This document shows positions 2,215-11,411 of a stretch of DNA of 11,411 nucleotides, piece after piece. The translations under genes were made by a program, and so were the position numbers. The notes under the pieces were generated by a model, which was not told the DNA's origin, did no database searches, and saw only the letters and a program-made list of their open reading frames with translations. How positions within the stretch are numbered: position 1 is the first letter of the stretch; every line of letters starts with the position of its first letter. The DNA comes from a virus (lineage: Duplodnaviria; Heunggongvirae; Uroviricota; Caudoviricetes), in the IMG/VR virus record IMGVR_UViG_2713896907_000009, positions 1-11,411 of that record. The stretch is one strand, 5' to 3'.

Positions 2215-2831
2215 GACCGCACTCCTTTGCGAAGCTGGGAAGCAAAGTCAACTAACCACTCAGTCATTTCAACCTTCCCTACCAGGTCTGAACCAGGGTG
2301 CATACAGCAATCACTCTGCGCCGCTTTGAAATCCTTATACTCATATTCTTGGGCCACCAGATTTTTTGCAGCTTCTATAGCAGCATCCACGCCCTGCGCT
2401 CGTACTTCAGCCAGGAAAGCATCGGTGGCTGGGGTGTCTGATTGCAGAAACTTTGCGCGATAGTCATTCCACCCTCTTGCATACATGGGATTAACTTGCA
2501 CTCCATCTTTTACGCAATATGCCTGCCCTCCACGGTTGATAACCTTGATTTCGTCCATAGCGCCAGACTTCAGCCCAGCATTCTCCGCTGCCAGCGCCGA
2601 AAACTTCTCGTGTGCCAACTTAACAGCTGCATCAGCCTGCTTAATTGACTCAATCGCTTTCTGCTGGTCTTCGGCCAGCGCATTAGCACGCACCAGTTGC
2701 ACTTCCAGTTGCGTTGCCAAATCGCTGATCAGCTTTGCCACACTGCGCATATCAACGGCACCACATTCTGCTTTCAGTTCCGAAGCCATCTCATGCCCGG
2801 CGGCAACTAACCCTTTGATATTACTTTCCAT
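2211..2831 (-). CDS. Hypothetical phage protein (206 aa), Ala-rich, predicted helical N-terminal half
   Basis: ORF 2211-2831, ATG preceded by GAGGG; translationally coupled to the downstream gene. No family recognised. Confidence 0.55.
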   Translation of the reverse strand: MESNIKGLVAAGHEMASELKAECGAVDMRSVAKLISDLATQLEVQLVRANALAEDQQKAIESIKQADAAVKLAHEKFSALAAENAGLKSGAMDEIKVINRGGQAYCVKDGVQVNPMYARGWNDYRAKFLQSDTPATDAFLAEVRAQGVDAAIEAAKNLVAQEYEYKDFKAAQSDCCMHPGSDLVGKVEMTEWLVDFASQLRKGVRS

Positions 2832-2892
2832 CTTTACCCTCGCTTATCCACATAACTTATTGATTACATTGATAACTAAAAAGATCGTCGAT

Positions 2893-3237
2893 TCAGAACT
2901 CTTCGATGCTCCAGCCACCACCTGCTTTCTTTGGTTTAACCGTTACCCCGATGATTCGGAACGGATACTGATCTGCGGCGACTTTGGTTTTCACCCTGGC
3001 GTCGTCGGTCCAGAAACCTTTCACTTCGTGCAGTTCCATCTCGCCGGTGGCGAGCATCACAGCAAAATCGGGCGTATAGAACGTGTTGTCAGCTAACCGC
3101 AGCTTGATACCCTCAAATCGATACCAGACGATTTCTCCTGCACGTTTACGCAGCTCAAGGTGCTGGCAATACGCAGATTCTGTTTTGTTCATCTGGCCTG
3201 TTTTGAGTCGACCAAGAGCCTGTATCTGTTTTCTCAT
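2893..3237 (-). CDS. DUF1064-like phage protein (114 aa)
   Basis: ORF 2893-3237; pattern ...Y..LELRKRAGEI...YTPDF.V......ELHEVKG......ARVKTKVAADQYPF matches my recollection of the DUF1064 family found beside phage replication genes. SD GAGGT upstream of the ATG lies inside an operator-like palindrome. Confidence 0.6.
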   Translation of the reverse strand: MRKQIQALGRLKTGQMNKTESAYCQHLELRKRAGEIVWYRFEGIKLRLADNTFYTPDFAVMLATGEMELHEVKGFWTDDARVKTKVAADQYPFRIIGVTVKPKKAGGGWSIEEF

Positions 3238-3240
3238 GAT

Positions 3241-3317
3241 TTACCTCTGAGGTAATTAAAAACCACATAAGACATGAAATCAATAGAATTTAGAATATTT
3301 TATTACCCATCAGGTAA
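3241..3317 (-). promoter_or_regulatory. Leftward promoter flanked by two TTACC-N5-GGTAA palindromes (operator-like)
   Basis: Palindromes at 3241-3255 (TTACC TCTGA GGTAA) and 3303-3317 (TTACC CATCA GGTAA). On the minus strand: -35 TTGATT (plus 3283-3278), 17-bp spacer, -10 TTTAAT (plus 3260-3255). One palindrome is 18 nt upstream of the -35; the other abuts the -10 and includes the SD of the 2893-3237 gene. Confidence 0.45.
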
Positions 3318-3354
3318 TTATCGAGGCGTAAAAAAATGCGCTATCGCGCTGGTA

Positions 3355-4140
3355 TTACTTGATAAATCCTGCCGCCTTTCCCCGCCTGTATTCCTCCATC
3401 AGCCACTGCGCTGGTGTTATTCCCCCAAGGGTGGCGGCGTTAGGCATGCACCCGAAACTTCGCCCTGATGGATGGTAAACGTCTCTCCCTGTGTCCGGAG
3501 GTGTACTCATGGGCTCTGGCTTTGCCTGTATGCTGATCACCGGCTCGGGTATCTGCTGTCCGGAAGCCACCTTTTTCGCCCAATCATCGAGCAGCCTGCG
3601 CGCGTGTTTCTCAACCTCAATCTCGCTAAGCTGGCGCTGATACATTGCACGGCGGGTATCACATACGACCCAGTACATAACCGGATGCCGCCACGGGAAT
3701 CTTTCGGGACCACCAGGATATAAACTTTTTTCCTTGCTGTACCGGTGAAACTCCGCCATCACATCGTCAATGGTGACGCCAAGAACCATCTTGCTGTCTT
3801 TACACCACTTGATGAATTGCCCTGGCGACGGCCAGAACGGAGATTCACTGGCGCGGGCGTGGCGCATACCAGCAGAAACCTGTTCACGGGTTCGGATCCC
3901 CCCTTCGGCAAACGCAGCAATCCACTGCTGTTTTGCAGCAACTTCCTGCTCTGGCGTCTTCAGGTTGGTTACCACTGCCGCCGGAAACAGTTGTTTCAAC
4001 TGTTTGAAAAGGGCATCAACAAGCCTCTCTGCTGACATGTTCACCACGTTGTCATTGTTAGTGTACTGATGCTCATAACCTGACATGCGAGAAAGGGCTT
4101 CTCCGTCACGGTTTTGTATCGCGGTAAAAACGTTGTTCAC
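3355..4140 (-). CDS. Replication protein P-like (helicase loader, lambda P family)
   Basis: ORF 3355-4155; segments PFWPSPGQFIKWC, SLYPGGPERFPWRHPVMYWVV and QIPEPV match lambda P as I recall it (PFLPSPGQFVAWC, GLYPDAESYPWKSNAHYWLV, AIPEPV). Start placed at GTG 4140-4138 (GGGAGGA SD 6 nt upstream), overlapping the upstream stop as GTGA. Confidence 0.7.
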   Translation of the reverse strand: MNNVFTAIQNRDGEALSRMSGYEHQYTNNDNVVNMSAERLVDALFKQLKQLFPAAVVTNLKTPEQEVAAKQQWIAAFAEGGIRTREQVSAGMRHARASESPFWPSPGQFIKWCKDSKMVLGVTIDDVMAEFHRYSKEKSLYPGGPERFPWRHPVMYWVVCDTRRAMYQRQLSEIEVEKHARRLLDDWAKKVASGQQIPEPVISIQAKPEPMSTPPDTGRDVYHPSGRSFGCMPNAATLGGITPAQWLMEEYRRGKAAGFIK

Positions 4141-4976
4141 AAGAAATCCTCCCATGCTTCAGGGCTGTTCCAGTGCGGAACGTTGTTATCAGGTAATGTT
4201 GATTGCTTCTGTCTGCTAATCTGCAGCCGCCTTGCCAGCTTCTGCTCCCACTGTGCCTGATGGTATGCCTTACCCTCAGCCATCCAGTAAATTCTGAACT
4301 CTGCAAGTTCCTGTGCCGTTGGCAGACTGTCCAGGTAGATCCCCTGCAATGAGCTTTTCCGAAGAAAGTCATCTGATGGCTGCCATTGTTCATGCATGAC
4401 AAATTTGCCTAATTGCCCTGGCCCACCAGGAGGAACAAAGTTATTCATCACGGCGTTGTTTGCGCCGGGGTCATGAGGCACAGAATCCCCGGCTTTTGTC
4501 CTGCTCTCCCTCTCTTGGTTAAATGACTGGTTATATGACTGGTTCTGGATCCCGTTTTTGGGATCATTCAACATCCCGTTTTTGGGATCATTCAACATCC
4601 CGTTTTTGGGATCATTCAACATCCCGTTTTTGGGTATATTCCCGTTTTCGGGAACATTACCGTTTTCGGGTTCATTGCTCCATTCCCGGTTGCCTTTAAT
4701 GTTCCCGTTTTTGGTTATATTAAGAGAGAAAACCCGCACTCTTTTCGTCGCTCCCTTTCTCTCTCCGGTATCTGAAATAAGCCCCATTTTCATGAGCGAT
4801 ATAAGCCCGGCCTGTACGGTTTTTTTATTCAGGCAAGTGTCTTTAACGAGGCGTTCTATGCTGGGGTAGCAGAGGTTATATTCATCGGCTCTGTCAGCCA
4901 TCGAGAGCAGTATGAGCTTTAATGACGAGCTACCCGGATCTGTCTCCCAGGCCCAATCTGTTGCATGTCTGCTCAT
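4137..4976 (-). CDS. Replication initiator, O-like (N-terminal DNA-binding domain, Asn-rich repeat linker encoded by iterons, C-terminal domain)
   Basis: ORF 4137-4976, ATG 4976 with GGAG SD. Sits immediately upstream of and coupled to the P-like gene. Contains in-frame 8-aa repeats (PKNGMLND x3) encoded by 24-bp direct repeats, as lambda O contains ori. C-terminal region resembles DnaT/O-type replisome-organiser domains (from memory, unverified). Confidence 0.65.
   Translation of the reverse strand: MSRHATDWAWETDPGSSSLKLILLSMADRADEYNLCYPSIERLVKDTCLNKKTVQAGLISLMKMGLISDTGERKGATKRVRVFSLNITKNGNIKGNREWSNEPENGNVPENGNIPKNGMLNDPKNGMLNDPKNGMLNDPKNGIQNQSYNQSFNQERESRTKAGDSVPHDPGANNAVMNNFVPPGGPGQLGKFVMHEQWQPSDDFLRKSSLQGIYLDSLPTAQELAEFRIYWMAEGKAYHQAQWEQKLARRLQISRQKQSTLPDNNVPHWNSPEAWEDFL
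4547..4700. repeat. Iteron array: three perfect 24-bp direct repeats (4561-4632) flanked by degenerate copies; putative phage replication origin inside the O-like gene
   Basis: ggatcattcaacatcccgtttttg repeated exactly at 4561-4584, 4585-4608 and 4609-4632; partial or degenerate copies at 4547-4560 and 4633-4700. Each unit contains the inverted repeat GGGAT/ATCCC. Confidence 0.6.
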
Positions 4977-5026
4977 GATTAATCTCCGCTATCAGCTTGA
5001 ATGTTGTGGGGAGGAATTAATCATGA
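4973..5026. repeat. Inverted repeat (11-bp perfect arms, extendable to about 15 bp) bracketing the O-like start codon and SD
   Basis: tcatgattaat at 4973-4983 and its reverse complement attaatcatga at 5016-5026. The left arm contains the O-like ATG (4976-4974) and is adjacent to its GGAG SD. Confidence 0.5.
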
Positions 5027-5192
5027 TCTGCTTAATCTCTGCCCTGATGCGACGGTTTGATTCCATGGTGCACTCAACACAGTGTCCGTTGTAAACCCAG
5101 CGTTCACTGTCATGTCCGTGCTTACATGGTTTTCCGGTGTAGTAGCGTTTAAGTCCGCGCTTTGCGGCATCAATACGTGTAATGATTTCCAT
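4992..5192 (-). CDS. Small zinc-finger protein (66 aa), function unknown; occupies the position downstream of cro
   Basis: ORF 4992-5255; start assigned to internal ATG 5192 (MEIITRIDAAK...) because the N-terminal extension MIFFLCQHKITVIPILITGLT looks non-coding and runs into the intergenic terminator region. Product has C-x-H-x-H ... C-x2-C spacing (KPCKHGHDSERWVYNGHCVEC). Confidence 0.45.
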   Translation of the reverse strand: MEIITRIDAAKRGLKRYYTGKPCKHGHDSERWVYNGHCVECTMESNRRIRAEIKQIMINSSPQHSS

Positions 5193-5290
5193 GGTAAGCC
5201 CCGTTATTAGTATTGGGATTACGGTTATTTTGTGCTGACACAAAAAAAAGATCAACCAGATTTGGTTTTTTATTACCTTTGAGGTGCGAA

Positions 5291-5608: not shown

Positions 5609-5672
5609 TTCACCCATAAGGTAACAAAAATCAAGGATAGTTACCTATGGGGTGCATTTACCTGTTGGGTAA
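5609..5672. promoter_or_regulatory. Divergent promoter/operator region between the Cro-like and repressor genes with three operator-like sites
   Basis: Sites at 5609-5623 (TCACC CATAA GGTAA), 5641-5655 (TTACC TATGG GGTGC) and 5658-5672 (TTACC TGTTG GGTAA, perfect) in an AT-rich 154-bp intergenic region; -35-like TTGATT on the minus strand. I could not place the -10 elements confidently. Confidence 0.5.
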
Positions 5673-5727: not shown

Positions 5728-6312
5728 ATGAAAAGTATCCAGGACGTCCGCAGGCAAAATCTCAACGACTTGATCGACCGTGAATTCAATGGTGTTCAGA
5801 CGCGGATGGCAGAAAAACTTGGAACTCAGGCAAATCTGGTAAACCGCTGGGCTCTTGGCAAGAAGGTTATCGGCGACCAGGTTGCGCGAAAAATTGAAGC
5901 TGCCGCCAATAAACCCCGTAACTGGCTTGATATCGATCGCTCGCTTTCTCAGGAAGGTTTTCAGCCTGTCGGACCAAGCGACATTGGTCAGCTGGCGGCT
6001 CACAACCTGGAACGCTGGATGAGCGAAAGCCGCGACCTTTCAACGCAGGGAAAACTTCACCGCGCATCCGGCGTCGCCCAGGTGACAATCAGCCGCCTGT
6101 TAAACAATGAGGTCAGCGTTTCCATTTCCACCCTGGAGAATGTTGCATCAGCATTCGGGCGTCACGGATATGAACTACTGATTCACCCACACGACCCTGC
6201 GACTATCAACTATGACCGCTCGCGCTACGCTTTGTTACCCGAAACCGAGAAAGCAAAGATCGAAAGTTACATTGAATTTGTCATCAACCAGAACGAAAAA
6301 AACAAACAATAA
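5728..6312 (+). CDS. Phage repressor-like protein with two tandem XRE-type HTH domains and no S24 peptidase domain
   Basis: ORF 5728-6312. HTH 1 about aa 25-70 (VQTRMAEKLGTQANLVNRWALGKK...); HTH 2 about aa 105-150 (LHRASGVAQVTISRLLNNEVSVSISTLENVASAF). C-terminus has no Ser/Lys dyad or Ala-Gly cleavage context. Flanked on both sides by TTACC-N5-GGTAA sites. Confidence 0.65.
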   Translation: MKSIQDVRRQNLNDLIDREFNGVQTRMAEKLGTQANLVNRWALGKKVIGDQVARKIEAAANKPRNWLDIDRSLSQEGFQPVGPSDIGQLAAHNLERWMSESRDLSTQGKLHRASGVAQVTISRLLNNEVSVSISTLENVASAFGRHGYELLIHPHDPATINYDRSRYALLPETEKAKIESYIEFVINQNEKNKQ

Positions 6313-6332
6313 AATCATATTTTTCAGTAAGT

Positions 6333-6358
6333 AAGCCGCCTTCTGGCGGCTTTTTTAT
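6333..6358 (+). terminator. Rho-independent terminator downstream of the repressor gene
   Basis: Perfect 8-bp stem aagccgcc / ggcggctt (6333-6340 and 6345-6352), 4-nt loop ttct, followed by a T-tract (TTTTTTATT). Confidence 0.7.
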
Positions 6359-6368
6359 TGCCTATTTG

Positions 6369-6446
6369 ATTACCTATCGGGTAATTTTTTTAACTCATAT
6401 CTATTGACATCAAACCAAATACGCATAATCATTACCTAAACGGTAA
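6369..6446 (+). promoter_or_regulatory. Rightward early promoter (PL-like) flanked by two TTACC-N5-GGTAA operator-like palindromes
   Basis: Sites at 6369-6385 (ATTACC TATCG GGTAAT) and 6432-6446 (TTACC TAAAC GGTAA), plus a GGTAA half-site at 6456-6460 that overlaps the SD of the first gene. Consensus -35 TTGACA at 6404-6409; the best -10 candidate CATAAT (6424-6429) gives a short 14-bp spacer, so the exact -10 is uncertain. Confidence 0.5.
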
Positions 6447-6465
6447 CAAACCGAGGTAACAAGTT

Positions 6466-6618
6466 ATGCAGTGGAAAATCATCAACGGTTGGTACTGCGT
6501 TACTGCATGCGGATTCATGAGCTGGAAGTTCCGCACCTTACAGGAAGGTATTAAGTGGGCTTTCGTCAGCAAAGAAGCTCGCGATGTGGCCAACGATAAC
6601 GAGATATGGGAGGGCTGA
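6466..6618 (+). CDS. Small Trp-rich protein (50 aa), first gene of the rightward early operon; unknown function
   Basis: Not in the supplied ORF track (below its size cut-off). ATG 6466 preceded by GAGG at about 9 nt; my own translation is MQWKIINGWYCVTACGFMSWKFRTLQEGIKWAFVSKEARDVANDNEIWEG. Its stop is 2 nt before the next gene's ATG and its 3-prime end encodes that gene's SD (GGGAGGG). Confidence 0.4.
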   Translation: MQWKIINGWYCVTACGFMSWKFRTLQEGIKWAFVSKEARDVANDNEIWEG

Positions 6619-6620
6619 TA

Positions 6621-6920
6621 ATGAACGTTAATCAGCAGAAAAATCTTCAAAAAATCATGCTGGCATTCGACAAGGACTACCGCCTGTCAGAACAGCTATA
6701 TGACCGACAAGTTGAACTGATTGAGAGCATCCGACTTCATCAACTGTCCTCAACTTTCGACGTTGTAACAGGCAAAGGCGTTCGTCAGGAAGTGCTGGAG
6801 GCTGCTAAAGACAGCCCTGAGTTCGAAGAACTGATGGATGCCTACCGGCGCGAGGCAATGGCAATTATAGCGCGCTGGGATCTGGCGGATCAGCTTGATG
6901 GGCAGAGGGACGCGGCATGA
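6621..6920 (+). CDS. Hypothetical phage protein (99 aa) immediately upstream of exo/bet
   Basis: ORF-track frame 6606-6920; start placed at ATG 6621 (MNVNQQ...) with GGGAGGG SD at 6 nt. Stop overlaps the exonuclease ATG (ATGA). No family recognised. Confidence 0.6.
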   Translation: MNVNQQKNLQKIMLAFDKDYRLSEQLYDRQVELIESIRLHQLSSTFDVVTGKGVRQEVLEAAKDSPEFEELMDAYRREAMAIIARWDLADQLDGQRDAA

Positions 6921-7738
6921 AACCGGGAATTTATTTCGACATCAGCAACGAAGACTACCACGCAGGTGACGGCGTGAGTAAGTCGCAACTGGACATGGTT
7001 GCCAAGAATCCGGCGCTTCTTAAATGGGTTCAGGCAGCACCAGAAGACGAAGAGAAAAAGTCTGCACTGGATATGGGAACCGCATTGCACTGCCTGCTTC
7101 TGGAACCTGGAGAATTCGACAAACGCTTCATCGTTTCACCGAAATTCGATCGTCGGACAAAACAAGGTAAAGCTGACGAAGAAGCATTTCTTCGTGATGT
7201 GGCGGATATGGGTATTACGGTACTTGATGTCGAGCAGTGGCGAAAACTGGAGCTGATGCGTGATAGCGCAATGGCTCATCCGGCGGCACGCTGGATGTTG
7301 GAAGCACCTGGTTACTGCGAAGCATCAATGTACTGGAACGATGAAGAGACGGGTGAGTTGTGCCGAATTCGTCCAGACAAATGGCTGAACGAGCACAACG
7401 TGATCGTCGACGTGAAAAAGGTTGCAGATATGGACCGTTTTGCACGCCACATCGAGGAATTCCGCTACCACGTGCAGGACGCAATGTACCGCGAAGGCGC
7501 AATGAGGGTTACTGGTCAGCCGCATGGTTTTTTCTTTCTTGCCGTGAGCGAAAGCATTGATTGTGGTCGGTATCCGGTACGCGTGTTCGAGCTGGATGCG
7601 CCGGATGTCGATGCCGGGCACGCTCTGTTCCGCCGGGATCTGAATACCTATCACGAATGCCGCATCAACGATGAGTGGGGCGGAGTGGAAATTATTAAAC
7701 GCCCTGACTGGGCACGTAAACAGGATATGTACGTATGA
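6917..7738 (+). CDS. PD-(D/E)XK family exonuclease (phage recombination exonuclease, RecB-like nuclease fold)
   Basis: ORF 6917-7738. Motifs in order: IRPDKW (D), VIVDVKK (D-x-K), QDAMYREG (QxxxY), the arrangement of RecB/Cas4-type PD-(D/E)XK nucleases. Coupled (ATGA) to the downstream Bet-like gene. Confidence 0.7.
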   Translation: MKPGIYFDISNEDYHAGDGVSKSQLDMVAKNPALLKWVQAAPEDEEKKSALDMGTALHCLLLEPGEFDKRFIVSPKFDRRTKQGKADEEAFLRDVADMGITVLDVEQWRKLELMRDSAMAHPAARWMLEAPGYCEASMYWNDEETGELCRIRPDKWLNEHNVIVDVKKVADMDRFARHIEEFRYHVQDAMYREGAMRVTGQPHGFFFLAVSESIDCGRYPVRVFELDAPDVDAGHALFRRDLNTYHECRINDEWGGVEIIKRPDWARKQDMYV

Positions 7739-8616
7739 GCAATGATATCGCAATCACATCACAACCTGGCGCAACTGTAGGTACTGCTGCGGCAATCTTC
7801 AGCCCGGAGGGCATGAATCAACTGGTGCGTTTCGCGGAGTTGATGTCACAAAGCAAAGCGACTGTACCGAAACATCTTGAAGGCAAACCTGCCGATTGCC
7901 TGGCGGTGACCATGCAGGCGGCACAGTGGGGAATGAACCCGTTCGCCGTGGCGCAGAAAACGCATGTGGTAAACGGAACGTTAGGCTACGAAGCACAGTT
8001 GGTAAACGCGGTCGTATCCTCTTCCAGCCTGCTGGCGACACGCCTGAATTATCGCTGGAGCGGTGACTGGTCGAATGTTAACGGCAAAACAGATAAATCA
8101 CCGAATCTGACGGTAACTGTGTCAGCAGTTCTTAAAGGAGAAGCAGAACCACGTGAGCTTACCATCAGTATGGCGCAAGCCGGAGTGCGTAACTCTCCAT
8201 TGTGGGAACAGGATCCGCGCCAGCAGCTTGCCTATCTTTGCACGAAACGATGGGCTCGCCTGCACGCTCCTGATGTACTTCTCGGTGTTTACACCCCTGA
8301 AGAATTACAGGAAACGGCACCGCGCGTTGAGCGAGACATTACTCCGCAAACAACTACGGCTGCGGGAATGAATAGTCTGATCAACGCTAAAACAGTGAAA
8401 AAGCCTGATGAGCAAACGCGTAAAGCGGATAGCCGTGATCCAGAAGAAATGCTGATGGCCTTTACCAGCGCAGCAATGAATTACAGCACTGTCTCCGAAC
8501 TGGATAAGGCTTACAAATACATTGCACAAAAACTTTCAGATGATGACGAACTGCTGGCAAAAGCCACCGACGTTTACAGCGTTCGTCGGGAAGAATTAAA
8601 CGAAACATCTATGTAA
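7735..8616 (+). CDS. Single-strand annealing protein, Bet/RecT (Red-beta) family
   Basis: ORF 7735-8616. Segments GMNPFAVAQKTHVV, PLWEQDPRQQLAYLCTKRWARL and ERDITP parallel lambda Bet as I recall it (GLNPWTKEIYAF, PWQSHPKRMLRHKAMIQCARL, ERDITP). Sits directly downstream of a nuclease, as in exo/bet and recE/recT pairs. Confidence 0.75.
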   Translation: MSNDIAITSQPGATVGTAAAIFSPEGMNQLVRFAELMSQSKATVPKHLEGKPADCLAVTMQAAQWGMNPFAVAQKTHVVNGTLGYEAQLVNAVVSSSSLLATRLNYRWSGDWSNVNGKTDKSPNLTVTVSAVLKGEAEPRELTISMAQAGVRNSPLWEQDPRQQLAYLCTKRWARLHAPDVLLGVYTPEELQETAPRVERDITPQTTTAAGMNSLINAKTVKKPDEQTRKADSRDPEEMLMAFTSAAMNYSTVSELDKAYKYIAQKLSDDDELLAKATDVYSVRREELNETSM

Positions 8617-10160: not shown

Positions 10161-11411
10161 TTATTCCCCCGCCATCCACTTCTCAAACTTCGACGGGGAG
10201 AACGGAATCAGATCCGTATGCTCCCCGTTAATCCAGGAATCAATCATATCGGCCCACTGCTGCAACATGTAGGCGCGCTGTCTTGCGTATTCCGCTTTGT
10301 TATATACGGCGCGCACACCTTTCTGCTCATGTGCCAGAGCCTTTTCAATCCAGTCTGAAGGATAACCAGCCTCATGCAACAACGTACTTGCTGTACGGCG
10401 CATATCATGTACAGTGAAGTCCTGAATATGCTCACCATCTTCATTTATTATTTTCACCGTTCTGTCGATCAGAGAGTTCAGCGCGGCATTAGATAATGGC
10501 TTCCGGAAGTTGTAACGACCAGGAACCAGATATTCACTTCCACCAGCGCACATCTGCAACCCGACCAATATATCCTGTGCCTGTTTAGGCAGGTAAATAA
10601 CGTGCGCCCGGCTTCCCTTCATGCGGTCTGAAGGAATTGTCCATGTCCATTTTTTAAAATCTATTTCGTCCCACGTTGCATTAGTGAATTCGCCCTTACG
10701 AACCATAGTGATAAGCACCAGCTTTAAAGCCAGTTTCATAGTGCCCATAGCACCAATGGCATCCAGTGTGCGGAAGAACAGGCCAATTTCTTCTGGTGTC
10801 AGTGTTCGCTCTCGTGGTTTAAATATGGCGATAGACGAAGGTTTAATGTCAGCCGCAGGATTAAACAAACCATGACCACGGTCATTGGCGTGACGGTATA
10901 CGCTGCTGATGATCTCCCTGGCCTGTACTGCTGTTGCCCGACCACCGCGTTCGACAATCCGGTCACACAAATCACGAACCATCGATGTGGTAATTTCAGC
11001 CATCATTTTGTTGCCAAGAACCGGAAGTATGTCACGGTCGATCACCGCCAGCTTCATTGCGCGGGTACTGTCAGCCAGGATGACGTGTTTCATATAACTG
11101 TCGGTATGTACCGCAAACGTCTCGGCACCACGAATCTTTTTAATACCGTCACGTTTAGCCGCAGCCGGTGACTGGCCTGCTTTAAGCAGCTTCTTTGCAG
11201 CAATCAGTTCTTCCCGCGCTTCTGCCAGGCTGATACCGTCACGCCCATACTGCCCGATTACCAGTGTTTCGCGGCGACCGTTGATACGGTAGTCATAGCG
11301 AAACGAGACCGTACCTGACGTAAGCACAGCTACATACAGCCCGTCACGATCGGAAACTTTGTACAGTTTGTCCTGTGGCTTGAGGTTCTTTAATTTTGTA
11401 TCGGTAAGCAC
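10161..11411 (-). CDS. int: Tyrosine site-specific integrase (P4-type phage integrase family); N-terminus at or beyond the window edge
   Basis: 416-codon minus-strand frame reaching the last base of the window (apparent GTG at 11411, may be truncated). N-terminal LTDTKLKNLKP...DGLYV and C-terminal HDMRRTASTLL ... ALAH....VRAVYNKAEY (HxxR and catalytic Tyr region) match P4-like integrases. Confidence 0.85.
   Translation of the reverse strand: MLTDTKLKNLKPQDKLYKVSDRDGLYVAVLTSGTVSFRYDYRINGRRETLVIGQYGRDGISLAEAREELIAAKKLLKAGQSPAAAKRDGIKKIRGAETFAVHTDSYMKHVILADSTRAMKLAVIDRDILPVLGNKMMAEITTSMVRDLCDRIVERGGRATAVQAREIISSVYRHANDRGHGLFNPAADIKPSSIAIFKPRERTLTPEEIGLFFRTLDAIGAMGTMKLALKLVLITMVRKGEFTNATWDEIDFKKWTWTIPSDRMKGSRAHVIYLPKQAQDILVGLQMCAGGSEYLVPGRYNFRKPLSNAALNSLIDRTVKIINEDGEHIQDFTVHDMRRTASTLLHEAGYPSDWIEKALAHEQKGVRAVYNKAEYARQRAYMLQQWADMIDSWINGEHTDLIPFSPSKFEKWMAGE

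Follow-up and report, generated by a model that had tools for sequence, protein, structure and literature searches.

We analysed a stretch of viral DNA of 11,411 nucleotides (nt) (IMG/VR record IMGVR_UViG_2713896907_000009; the whole stretch is referred to as the window) and focused on two small genes located between positions 6466 and 6920. The DNA comes from a temperate podovirus (phiV10/epsilon15 type, genus Uetakevirus) that is integrated in Escherichia coli, and the 11.4-kb window corresponds to the early region of this phage. On the + strand, a repressor with two helix-turn-helix (HTH) domains is followed by a terminator, a promoter, the two small open reading frames (ORFs), which we call ORF A and ORF B, a RecE-like PD-(D/E)XK nuclease, and RecT. 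ORF A and ORF B are annotated as "hypothetical protein" in every source database, and the exact sequence of each is present on at least 1000 public contigs. On balance, we lean toward the view that an early-left operon of the phiV10/epsilon15 type, under the control of a repressor, begins in this region, in which ORF B would be a strongly diverged RecBCD inhibitor of the Gam lineage and ORF A a selected, immunity-linked first cistron that is not of the N type.

ORF B encodes an acidic protein of 99 amino acids (aa), predicted to be all-helical, and extends from 6621 to 6920 on the + strand (ATG at 6621, stop codon at 6918-6920). It is the counterpart of PhiV10p38 and of epsilon15 gp36. The program that listed the ORFs placed its start at an ATG at 6606. 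However, this ATG falls at the Shine-Dalgarno sequence GGAGG (6609-6613, + strand), which is contained within the end of ORF A, 7 nt 5' of the ATG at 6621, and all homologues and public annotations begin at an MNV/MNI codon that corresponds to 6621 in the window. We therefore consider 6621, and not 6606, to be the start of the gene. ORF B is a real gene: it matches phrog_856, a PHROG family of unknown function, over its full length (E 1.5e-55), and its stop codon overlaps the ATG of the nuclease gene (ATGA; 4 nt), so that the two are translationally coupled. The net charge of the protein is -6 and its isoelectric point (pI) is 4.7, with a family range of -4 to -9 and 4.6-5.2, respectively; the corresponding values for Gam are -10 and about 4.9. 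AlphaFold2 predicted three helices (residues 3-46, 56-63, and 66-98) with low confidence (predicted local distance difference test [pLDDT] score of 65, predicted template modeling [pTM] score of 0.32). A word-indexed search with ORF B returned only relatives that were at least 74% identical. An exhaustive hidden Markov model (HMM) search of 1.84 billion cluster representatives identified 31 representatives of the ORF B family, a few of which were 31-55% identical, and no bridge between this family and Gam. A profile scan of genome contigs for a diverged ORF B clade gave nothing, and the scan of viral contigs gave near-identical copies only. Because the exhaustive search yielded 31 representatives, we consider ORF B to be a small family restricted to phages of Enterobacteriaceae.

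The relationship of ORF B to lambda Gam emerged from comparisons at the level of families. When the ORF B family profile was searched against all PDB sequences, GamS (5mbv_A, 2uuz_A) was the best single-stretch match (E 0.08-0.11; query residues 27-87 against chain residues 29-91). The rows that ranked higher were designed repeat proteins without a significant stretch. Among the 24736 families of Pfam, the top match of P0087, a family member 44% identical to ORF B, was Gam (PF06064; E 0.0042, 17.7 bits; gathering threshold, 25 bits), with residues 31-94 aligned to profile positions 33-96 of 98. We then used hhalign, with 13 members of the ORF B family and 19 members of the Gam family in the main comparison. 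This gave a probability of 87.8% (P 3.3e-6, score 36.5). The probability was 91.9% against a merged Gam+GamL profile and 80-89% with two other choices of alignment, and P values across the ORF B-Gam comparisons ranged from 7e-7 to 1.4e-5. In every hhalign run, residues ~31-87 of ORF B were aligned with residues ~33-90 of GamS in the same register, with about 21% identity in the aligned part. The core common to both families consists of a G-x-[RS] turn and, after it, a helix with the motif [DE]-x-x-E-F-[EQ]-E.

Several controls were run alongside these comparisons. Reversed profiles scored 16-18. A set of 120 column shuffles gave a mean of 11-12 (standard deviation, 2.5; maximum, 18), and 60 shuffles in blocks of 7, which keep the local helical periodicity, reached at most 24.9. 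As the shuffle and reversal controls preserve composition, a purely compositional match between ORF B and Gam is excluded. Scores of 14 or less were obtained for 16 further small proteins from the early-left regions of lambda, P22, and Rac (Abc2, Abc1, Arf, Kil, KilR, CIII, RacC, RecE, Ral, N, and others), and hhalign detected no similarity of ORF B to Abc2, Abc1, Arf, RacC, or the N-terminal region of Rac RecE. We also used as a background the 3288 distinct phage ORFs from all fetched loci. The best non-Gam match of the Gam HMM was a member of the ORF B family (23.0 bits, E 1.4e-5), above phi80 GamL, which obtained 15-18 bits. Conversely, the best outside match of the ORF B HMM was lambda Gam (13.4 bits; next, 9.0). 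The ORF B and Gam families are thus reciprocal best HMM matches among the 3288 ORFs, and ORF B is statistically similar to Gam. From this profile evidence, ORF B is probably a remote homologue of lambda Gam and would represent a new, unannotated subfamily of a known kind of phage counter-defence protein.

The Asp and Glu residues of Gam that contact Arg and Lys residues of RecB and RecC are listed in Table 1 of PMC9836394. Three of them, D74, E111, and E114, align with E32, E67, and E70 of ORF B. Within the ORF B family, E32 is conserved in 13 of 13 members, position 67 is Glu in 12 and Asp in one, and position 70 is Glu in 11, Asp in one, and Ile in one. Gam D107 falls in an alignment gap, and five N-terminal contacts of Gam are outside the ORF B alignment. 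Helix H1 of Gam plugs the single-stranded DNA (ssDNA) channel of RecB (PMC5218532). A helix is predicted in the N-terminal region of ORF B as well, where local alignment found no sequence similarity to H1. Only a forced global alignment places F16 and Y20 of ORF B on W15 and Y19 of Gam, which is merely suggestive.

We gave the gene neighbourhood of ORF B the same weight as the sequence signal. In the loci examined, ORF B homologues are located directly 5' of a phage exonuclease gene, normally with the ATGA overlap; the exception is phage Tyrion, in which a 45-aa ORF separates the ORF B homologue from the nuclease gene. The partner is a RecE/DUF3799-type nuclease in the window, in loci L004, L006, L007, and L010, and in BUCT554, and a YqaJ/lambda-Exo-type nuclease in Klebsiella loci L008 and L009 and in epsilon15 (gp35). 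Since ORF B adjoins two unrelated nuclease folds, it more likely serves the recombination process than acts as a subunit of one enzyme. On the upstream side, KilR directly precedes the ORF B homologue in the lambdoid prophage L007, as kil directly precedes gam in lambda. In L004 and L006, a gene of 326-337 aa is present between ORF A and the ORF B homologue (L004 3980-4993; L006 264-1244). A 344-aa gene (2459-3493) occupies the same place in the E. coli contigs L162 and L165, whose ORF B is 98% identical to that of the window. The gene inserted in L004 matches phi80 Agt/Mog (45% identity, E 3e-53). What we say of GamL and Mog relies on the phi80 GenBank annotation and on PMC12315714. The phi80 record describes Mog as "modifier of Gam / anti-toxin for Gam" and places it directly upstream of gamL-rec-exo. 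A Mog homologue is therefore present directly upstream of ORF B homologues in four loci (L004, L006, L162, and L165). There is no Mog in the window. At 73 GamL loci, the upstream gene was Mog in 30, and the commonest alternative was a KilR-like protein of about 68 aa. The neighbourhood of ORF B is Gam-like: with KilR or Mog upstream and an exonuclease downstream, ORF B fills the gam/gamL slot, and the optional neighbours of this slot are also the same. Elsewhere in the window and in phiV10 (1-38099; tblastn for Abc2), no canonical Gam, GamL, or Abc2 was found.

Two further observations concern Mog itself. Of 80 viral contigs, from otherwise near-identical phages, 2 carry its homologue between the two small ORFs. 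The Mog homologues (326-344 aa) have a long, charged central region rich in Ala, Glu, Lys, and Arg and gave no Pfam or PADLOC match.

We compared ORF B with the known proteins of this kind. Lambda Gam (GamS, 98 aa; PF06064; PDB 2UUZ and 5MBV) resembles it in length, acidity, and predicted all-helical fold. The two also have in common the collinear C-terminal two-thirds with the E-F-[EQ]-E motif, the three conserved acidic positions that contact RecBCD, and a place in an early-left operon just before the recombination genes, with a Kil-type gene upstream in some relatives. They differ in that the Pfam score is below threshold, identity is about 21%, H1 cannot be aligned, and the net charge is -6 rather than -10. 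Moreover, Gam is paired with Bet and Exo, whereas ORF B is paired with RecE/RecT or Exo/RecT in Uetakevirus podoviruses. A 2025 survey of 325 lambdoid phages recognized four anti-RecBCD types, Gam, GamL, Abc2, and MuGam, and noted that Gam and GamL have very different sequences and the same predicted fold (PMC12315714). The phi80 GamL ("gam-like host nuclease inhibitor," 93 aa) occupies the same slot as ORF B (mog-gamL-annealase-exonuclease), with Mog upstream of ORF B in the four loci, and, like ORF B, is a diverged Gam-like "sequence type" of about 95 aa (PMC12315714). The two proteins have no detectable similarity, and the window lacks Mog. They also differ in the part of Gam that they resemble, which is N-terminal for GamL and C-terminal for ORF B. 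On this basis, the simplest reading would be that Gam, GamL, and ORF B are three diverged branches of one lineage, among which ORF B had so far escaped recognition. As a separate observation, phi80 GamL (L014 7555-7836) matched lambda Gam only over its N-terminal ~33 residues (hhalign 92%, residues 1-33). The N-terminal likeness of GamL and the C-terminal likeness of ORF B suggest that Gam-like inhibitors may have evolved in two exchangeable parts, possibly as mosaics.

Photorhabdus Plu2934 (Plu-gamma) had a 71.7% HHpred match to Gam helix H1, yet was equivalent to Gam in recombineering (PMC4381043). We set it against ORF B by description. Both are small, unannotated genes at the head of a phage recombination operon with a weak profile match to Gam, and they differ in that the likeness of Plu2934 is to helix H1 (27 residues) and that of ORF B is to the C-terminal part. 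Plu2934 therefore provides a precedent for Gam function at the level of similarity seen for ORF B. The Rac RecE/RecT operon apparently has no Gam equivalent (PMC4381043). P22 Abc2 (97 aa), which binds RecC and reprograms RecBCD (PMC9836394), is alike in size and in its early-left site beside a phage annealase. However, it has no similarity to ORF B (hhalign 0.7%), and phages of the Abc2 type lack an exonuclease of their own (PMC9836394), whereas the operon in the window includes one.

The preliminary description of this DNA had placed a 99-aa protein immediately upstream of exo/bet, had considered it a possible non-homologous nuclease inhibitor in the Gam position, and had stated that neither small protein resembles N or Gam. 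The position was correct, as ORF B (6621-6920) lies directly upstream of the recombination genes, although these encode a RecE-type DUF3799 nuclease and RecT and are not, strictly, lambda exo/bet. The Gam slot also stands, and ORF B is most likely a RecBCD inhibitor; "non-homologous" is not supported, given the collinear, statistically supported similarity to GamS over residues ~31-87. ORF A is indeed unlike N (hhalign 0.5%), while ORF B resembles Gam once profiles are compared with profiles. Of the homology and structure comparisons that had been proposed, the former finds Gam for ORF B, and the latter produced weak models (pLDDT of 65 for ORF B and 54 for ORF A).

A number of results weigh against ORF B being a Gam-type inhibitor. 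The window protein alone had no match in Pfam (none at E<=0.1), NCBIfam, or PDB, and even the best family member, P0087, reached 17.7 of the 25 bits of the Pfam gathering score. The hhalign probabilities of 80-92% are suggestive and not conclusive. Three fold searches with the weak ORF B model did not retrieve Gam. The local alignment begins at about residue 30, leaving the N-terminal third, the region of Gam helix H1, unaligned, and three of the six Gam contacts in the aligned part (D73, E118, and E125) have no conserved acidic counterpart in ORF B. Comparison of ORF B with phi80 GamL by hhalign gave 0.5%, both with GamL alone and with a 53-sequence GamL alignment, and phi80 was not matched when ORF B was searched against phages by tblastn. 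Finally, within the 38 kb of phiV10 (NC_007804), one strand has 8 Chi sites (GCTGGTGG), at positions 6746, 10214, 12016, 15190, 15605, 17437, 18811, and 27791, and the opposite strand has none. By our own calculation, about 0.6 per strand would be expected for a random 8-mer. The site at 27791 corresponds to 10540-10547 of the window, on the - strand. In lambdoid phages, abundant co-oriented Chi sites correlate with the absence of an anti-RecBCD gene, and 4 or more Chi sites occur in 24 of 202 phages that have one (PMC12315714). The abundance of Chi, the unaligned H1, the lost contacts, the sub-threshold score, and the weak model leave room for a variant mechanism and a small chance of another function.

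One such variant is that ORF B is Gam-derived or has the Gam fold and yet modulates RecBCD, or an SbcCD-like end-processing nuclease, in a manner compatible with Chi recombination, or acts transiently. We regard this as unlikely. The 8 co-oriented Chi sites of phiV10, with none on the other strand, would fit, as would an unaligned N-terminal helix, which in Gam enters the ssDNA channel of RecB, the retention of half of the aligned acidic contact residues, and a Mog "modifier" that is found in some relatives and is absent from most. However, the 24 of 202 anti-RecBCD lambdoid phages with 4 or more Chi sites indicate that the two features can coexist, 7 of the 8 sites are in + strand structural genes, where codon usage may contribute, and nothing points to a specific alternative target. 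In a bolder form, which we hold with equally little confidence, ORF B would be a third branch of the Gam superfamily that kept the body of the protein and replaced the channel-plugging helix. It would handle RecBCD or another nuclease differently, possibly in a Chi-compatible and Mog-tunable way, with ORF A as a 50-residue early effector tied to the Uetakevirus immunity switch. Another explanation is that the likeness to Gam reflects helical acidic character only and that ORF B is an accessory subunit or cofactor of RecE/RecT, with a role like that of P22 Arf or Abc1. The adjacency and translational coupling to the exonuclease gene and the weak absolute scores against Gam are consistent with a cofactor. 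Nevertheless, ORF B pairs with two unrelated exonuclease folds, DUF3799/RecE-type and YqaJ/lambda-Exo-type, it has no similarity to Arf, Abc1, or the N-terminal region of RecE, composition-preserving shuffle and reversal controls exclude a compositional match, and the association with Mog and KilR mirrors that of gam/gamL. We thus find a cofactor role improbable.

If ORF B is an inhibitor of the Gam lineage, its action could be outlined as follows. Upon infection or induction, the repressor would leave its operators and the early-left operon would be transcribed. ORF B would be translated just before the coupled RecE-like nuclease and RecT. By analogy with Gam, the small, acidic, helical protein may dimerize, occupy the site at which RecBCD of the host binds DNA ends, and inhibit the enzyme. 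This would spare linear and rolling-circle phage DNA, as well as recombination intermediates, and allow the RecE/RecT pair of the phage to process them. ORF B may also trigger RecBCD-guarding systems of the host; both Gam and T7 gp5.9 elicit a response from retron Ec48 (PMC9836394). The ORF A/ORF B region is present in 559 of 5426 complete E. coli genomes. If ORF B works as a RecBCD inhibitor, an unannotated anti-RecBCD gene would be present in roughly one in ten of the sequenced E. coli genomes. The same would apply to many prophages of Salmonella, Klebsiella, Citrobacter, and Enterobacter, and the 2025 lambdoid survey recognizes only Gam, GamL, Abc2, and MuGam. ORF B would also represent a natural, co-evolved "gamma" for compact RecE/RecT pairs in recombineering. 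The use of this finding lies in annotation and possibly in recombineering, and it would not surprise a specialist.

ORF A (6466-6618, + strand; ATG at 6466, stop codon at 6616-6618) encodes a Trp-rich protein of 50 aa and is the counterpart of PhiV10p39 and epsilon15 gp37. A Shine-Dalgarno sequence, GAGGT, can be read from the sequence 8 nt 5' of its ATG (6453-6457, + strand). The protein matches phrog_898, also a PHROG family of unknown function, over its full length (E 1.9e-38). To assess selection on ORF A, we compared codons 1-26 among homologues. Synonymous divergence was 0.5-0.9, and non-synonymous divergence was 0.02-0.09 for the closer homologues and 0.21-0.28 against the two most diverged ones. 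ORF A is a real protein under strong purifying selection. Family members are 49-54 residues long with a variable C-terminal tail, and the N-terminal half is near-invariant (MQWK-I-I-N-G-W-Y-C-V-T-A-C-G-L-M-S-W-K-F-R-T-L). The most diverged homologues, those of L004 and L006, retain M1-Q2-W3-K4, G8, Y10, V12-T13, C15-G16-L17-M18-S19-W20-K21-F22, L25, and W31-A32-F33, and have lost W9 and C11. We considered a Cys-x3-Cys metal site in ORF A. The pair is unlikely to be essential, because C11 is replaced by Leu in L004 and L006. The record of phage Tyrion (L176) contains an unannotated ORF A homologue with 85% identity (2847-2996, + strand) and shows instead a 70-aa ORF on the opposite strand (coding sequence 2751-2963, - strand), which is probably a mis-call.

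The distribution of ORF A follows the immunity region. Of the loci that combine the double-HTH repressor of the Uetakevirus type with its promoter, 8 of 8 contain ORF A. The gene is absent from L007, which has a different immunity region with an S24-type repressor and retains ORF B. Where Mog, or a 57-aa ORF in L010, is inserted, ORF A remains beside the promoter and not beside ORF B. Given that it accompanies the repressor type and stays at the promoter, ORF A belongs to the immunity/promoter module and not to the recombination module.

Searches of Pfam, NCBIfam, PDB, and PADLOC gave no match to ORF A; the only PDB row returned was a designed beta-propeller without a significant stretch. Its predicted structure (pLDDT 54) was unusable and was not used. 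Comparison by hhalign with lambda Kil, N, and Ral, with P22 Kil, C3, Arf, and Abc1, and with Rac KilR, YdaE, and RacC gave no similarity. Its 2 Arg and 4 Lys residues are scattered (6 basic and 6 acidic residues; pI 6.1). In agreement with the preliminary description, ORF A is a 50-aa Trp-rich protein encoded by the first gene after the promoter and has no arginine-rich motif. We rejected one candidate relative, CIII. A resemblance noticed by eye (MQ-[WY]-x-I-x-GW; R-x-L-x-[DE]-G) gave a shuffle p of 0.2-0.3 and an hhalign probability of 0.5%. Pfam Lambda_CIII and Lambda_Kil were likewise not matched, and hhalign against the CIII and Kil/KilR families gave 0.5% or less.

The preliminary description had also pointed out that ORF A occupies the position of lambda N. 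In favour of a functional analogue of this antiterminator, ORF A is indeed the first gene after the early-left promoter. However, this position carries no functional weight. Besides the missing arginine-rich motif and a pI of about 6, boxA matches are at chance level, with none near 6400-6470, and the comparison with lambda N by hhalign gave 0.5%. Furthermore, the operon has no + strand site resembling an intrinsic terminator between 6400 and 10300, which leaves nothing for an N-type antiterminator to act on. We consider an N analogue highly improbable. It is possible, if doubtful, that ORF A acts early as a small inhibitor of a host protein, for instance by blocking cell division, as Kil/KilR do, or FtsH, as CIII does. 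Its size and place in the operon resemble those of lambda CIII (54 aa) and Kil (47 aa), both of which precede gam. Kil/KilR-like genes fill the slot upstream of Gam-like genes in L007 and at many GamL loci. In addition, strong purifying selection acts on ORF A, and the gene is inherited together with the immunity region. On the other hand, ORF A has no similarity to Kil, KilR, or CIII (hhalign <=0.5%; pairwise shuffle p for CIII, 0.2-0.3), and next to an inserted Mog or 57-aa ORF it stays at the promoter, away from ORF B. The earlier suggestion that ORF A might be a nuclease inhibitor or host-takeover factor gained no support, as no comparison tied it to known examples. ORF A is like lambda N, CIII, and Kil in being a small protein encoded early in the leftward operon. 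It differs from N, CIII, and Kil in sequence and, from N, also in the absence of an arginine-rich motif and in an operon without a nut site or terminators. Judged by its size, position, and selection only, ORF A may be a short peptide that acts early in regulation or host takeover and belongs functionally with CIII or Kil, an assignment in which we have low confidence. Encoded at the very beginning of an early operon, it is an orphan peptide that is cleanly delimited and strongly conserved.

Both genes are preceded by the elements of a repressor-controlled promoter. The repressor gene (5728-6312, + strand; 194 aa; two HTH domains, Pfam HTH_3/HTH_26) is the counterpart of PhiV10p40. Its transcript ends at an intrinsic terminator at 6333-6352 (+ strand; 8-bp stem with 6 GC pairs, followed by a T run), and the phiV10 record annotates a terminator. 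The "PL-like" promoter of the preliminary description was borne out: the sigma-70 promoter TTGACA-17-AATCAT (6404-6432, + strand; 10 of 12 consensus matches) is the sole + strand promoter-like site from the terminator to the integrase gene, and it is flanked by two operator-like palindromes. One of these (TTACCTATCGGGTAA, 6370-6384) is 5' of the -35 element, and the other (TTACCTAAACGGTAA, 6432-6446) abuts the -10 element and overlaps the likely transcription start region. Both are copies of TTACC-N5-GGTAA, of which the window contains 6, arranged in three pairs, where chance would predict 0.14. In the GenBank record of epsilon15, three ATTACC-N5-GGTAAT sites upstream of gp37, the ORF A homologue, are labelled as repressor-binding sites, and the arrangement operator, -35, -10, operator is common to the window and epsilon15. 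The phiV10 repressor, the counterpart of that of the window, has the same sequence (ORF40) as ORF21 of ZX5, overexpression of which blocks lytic growth (PMC9782041). From the operators and the evidence on the repressor, it follows that an early-left operon under repressor control begins here, with ORF A and ORF B as its first two cistrons. The other copies of the palindrome are at 3241-3255, 3303-3317, 5610-5624, and 5658-5672, with one pair in the divergent repressor/cro region. The pair at 3241-3255 and 3303-3317 brackets a promoter-like sequence, TTGATT-17-TTTAAT, on the - strand, between the terminator after the replication P gene and a DUF1064 gene (2893-3237, - strand). This third pair suggests a third repressor-controlled promoter.

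Downstream of ORF B, the RecE-type PD-(D/E)XK exonuclease gene (6917-7738, + strand; 273 aa) matches Pfam DUF3799 (1.7e-21), phrog_412 "exonuclease VIII" (5e-126), and the NCBIfam ExoVIII C-terminal region. The gene for the RecT single-strand annealing protein (7735-8616, + strand; 293 aa; Pfam RecT, 2.7e-31; phrog_561, 1.9e-144) begins within the end of the recE-like gene, its start overlapping the stop codon. The two genes are likewise separate in IAI39, with the same overlap. The phiV10 reference record (L001 6618-8378), in contrast, annotates a single 586-aa RecE-RecT fusion (PhiV10p37), which may be a true fusion or frameshift or a difference in annotation. Further 3', the + strand encodes an AlpA-type regulator, a PerC-type activator, an MT-A70 methylase, and DUF1382. 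A P4-type integrase on the - strand follows this run of early genes. Over its full length, the region at 6300-6950 is 95.7-97.8% identical to phiV10, O157 typing phages 9 and 10, ZX5, TL-2011b, and others, and 98% identical to a prophage adjoining guaA in E. coli IAI39.

Two minor observations concern the - strand genes of the window. Inside the ORF at 4137-4976, the DnaT-like replication initiation protein contains three tandem copies of the peptide PKNGMLND (~4540-4640), preceded by related NG-rich units (NGNVPENGNIPKNG). The small ORF at 4992-5255, equivalent to PhiV10p42 and epsilon15 gp40, is in the position of lambda cII. It has no family match, and its C-x-H-G-H ... C-x-x-C pattern hints at a small domain that binds zinc.

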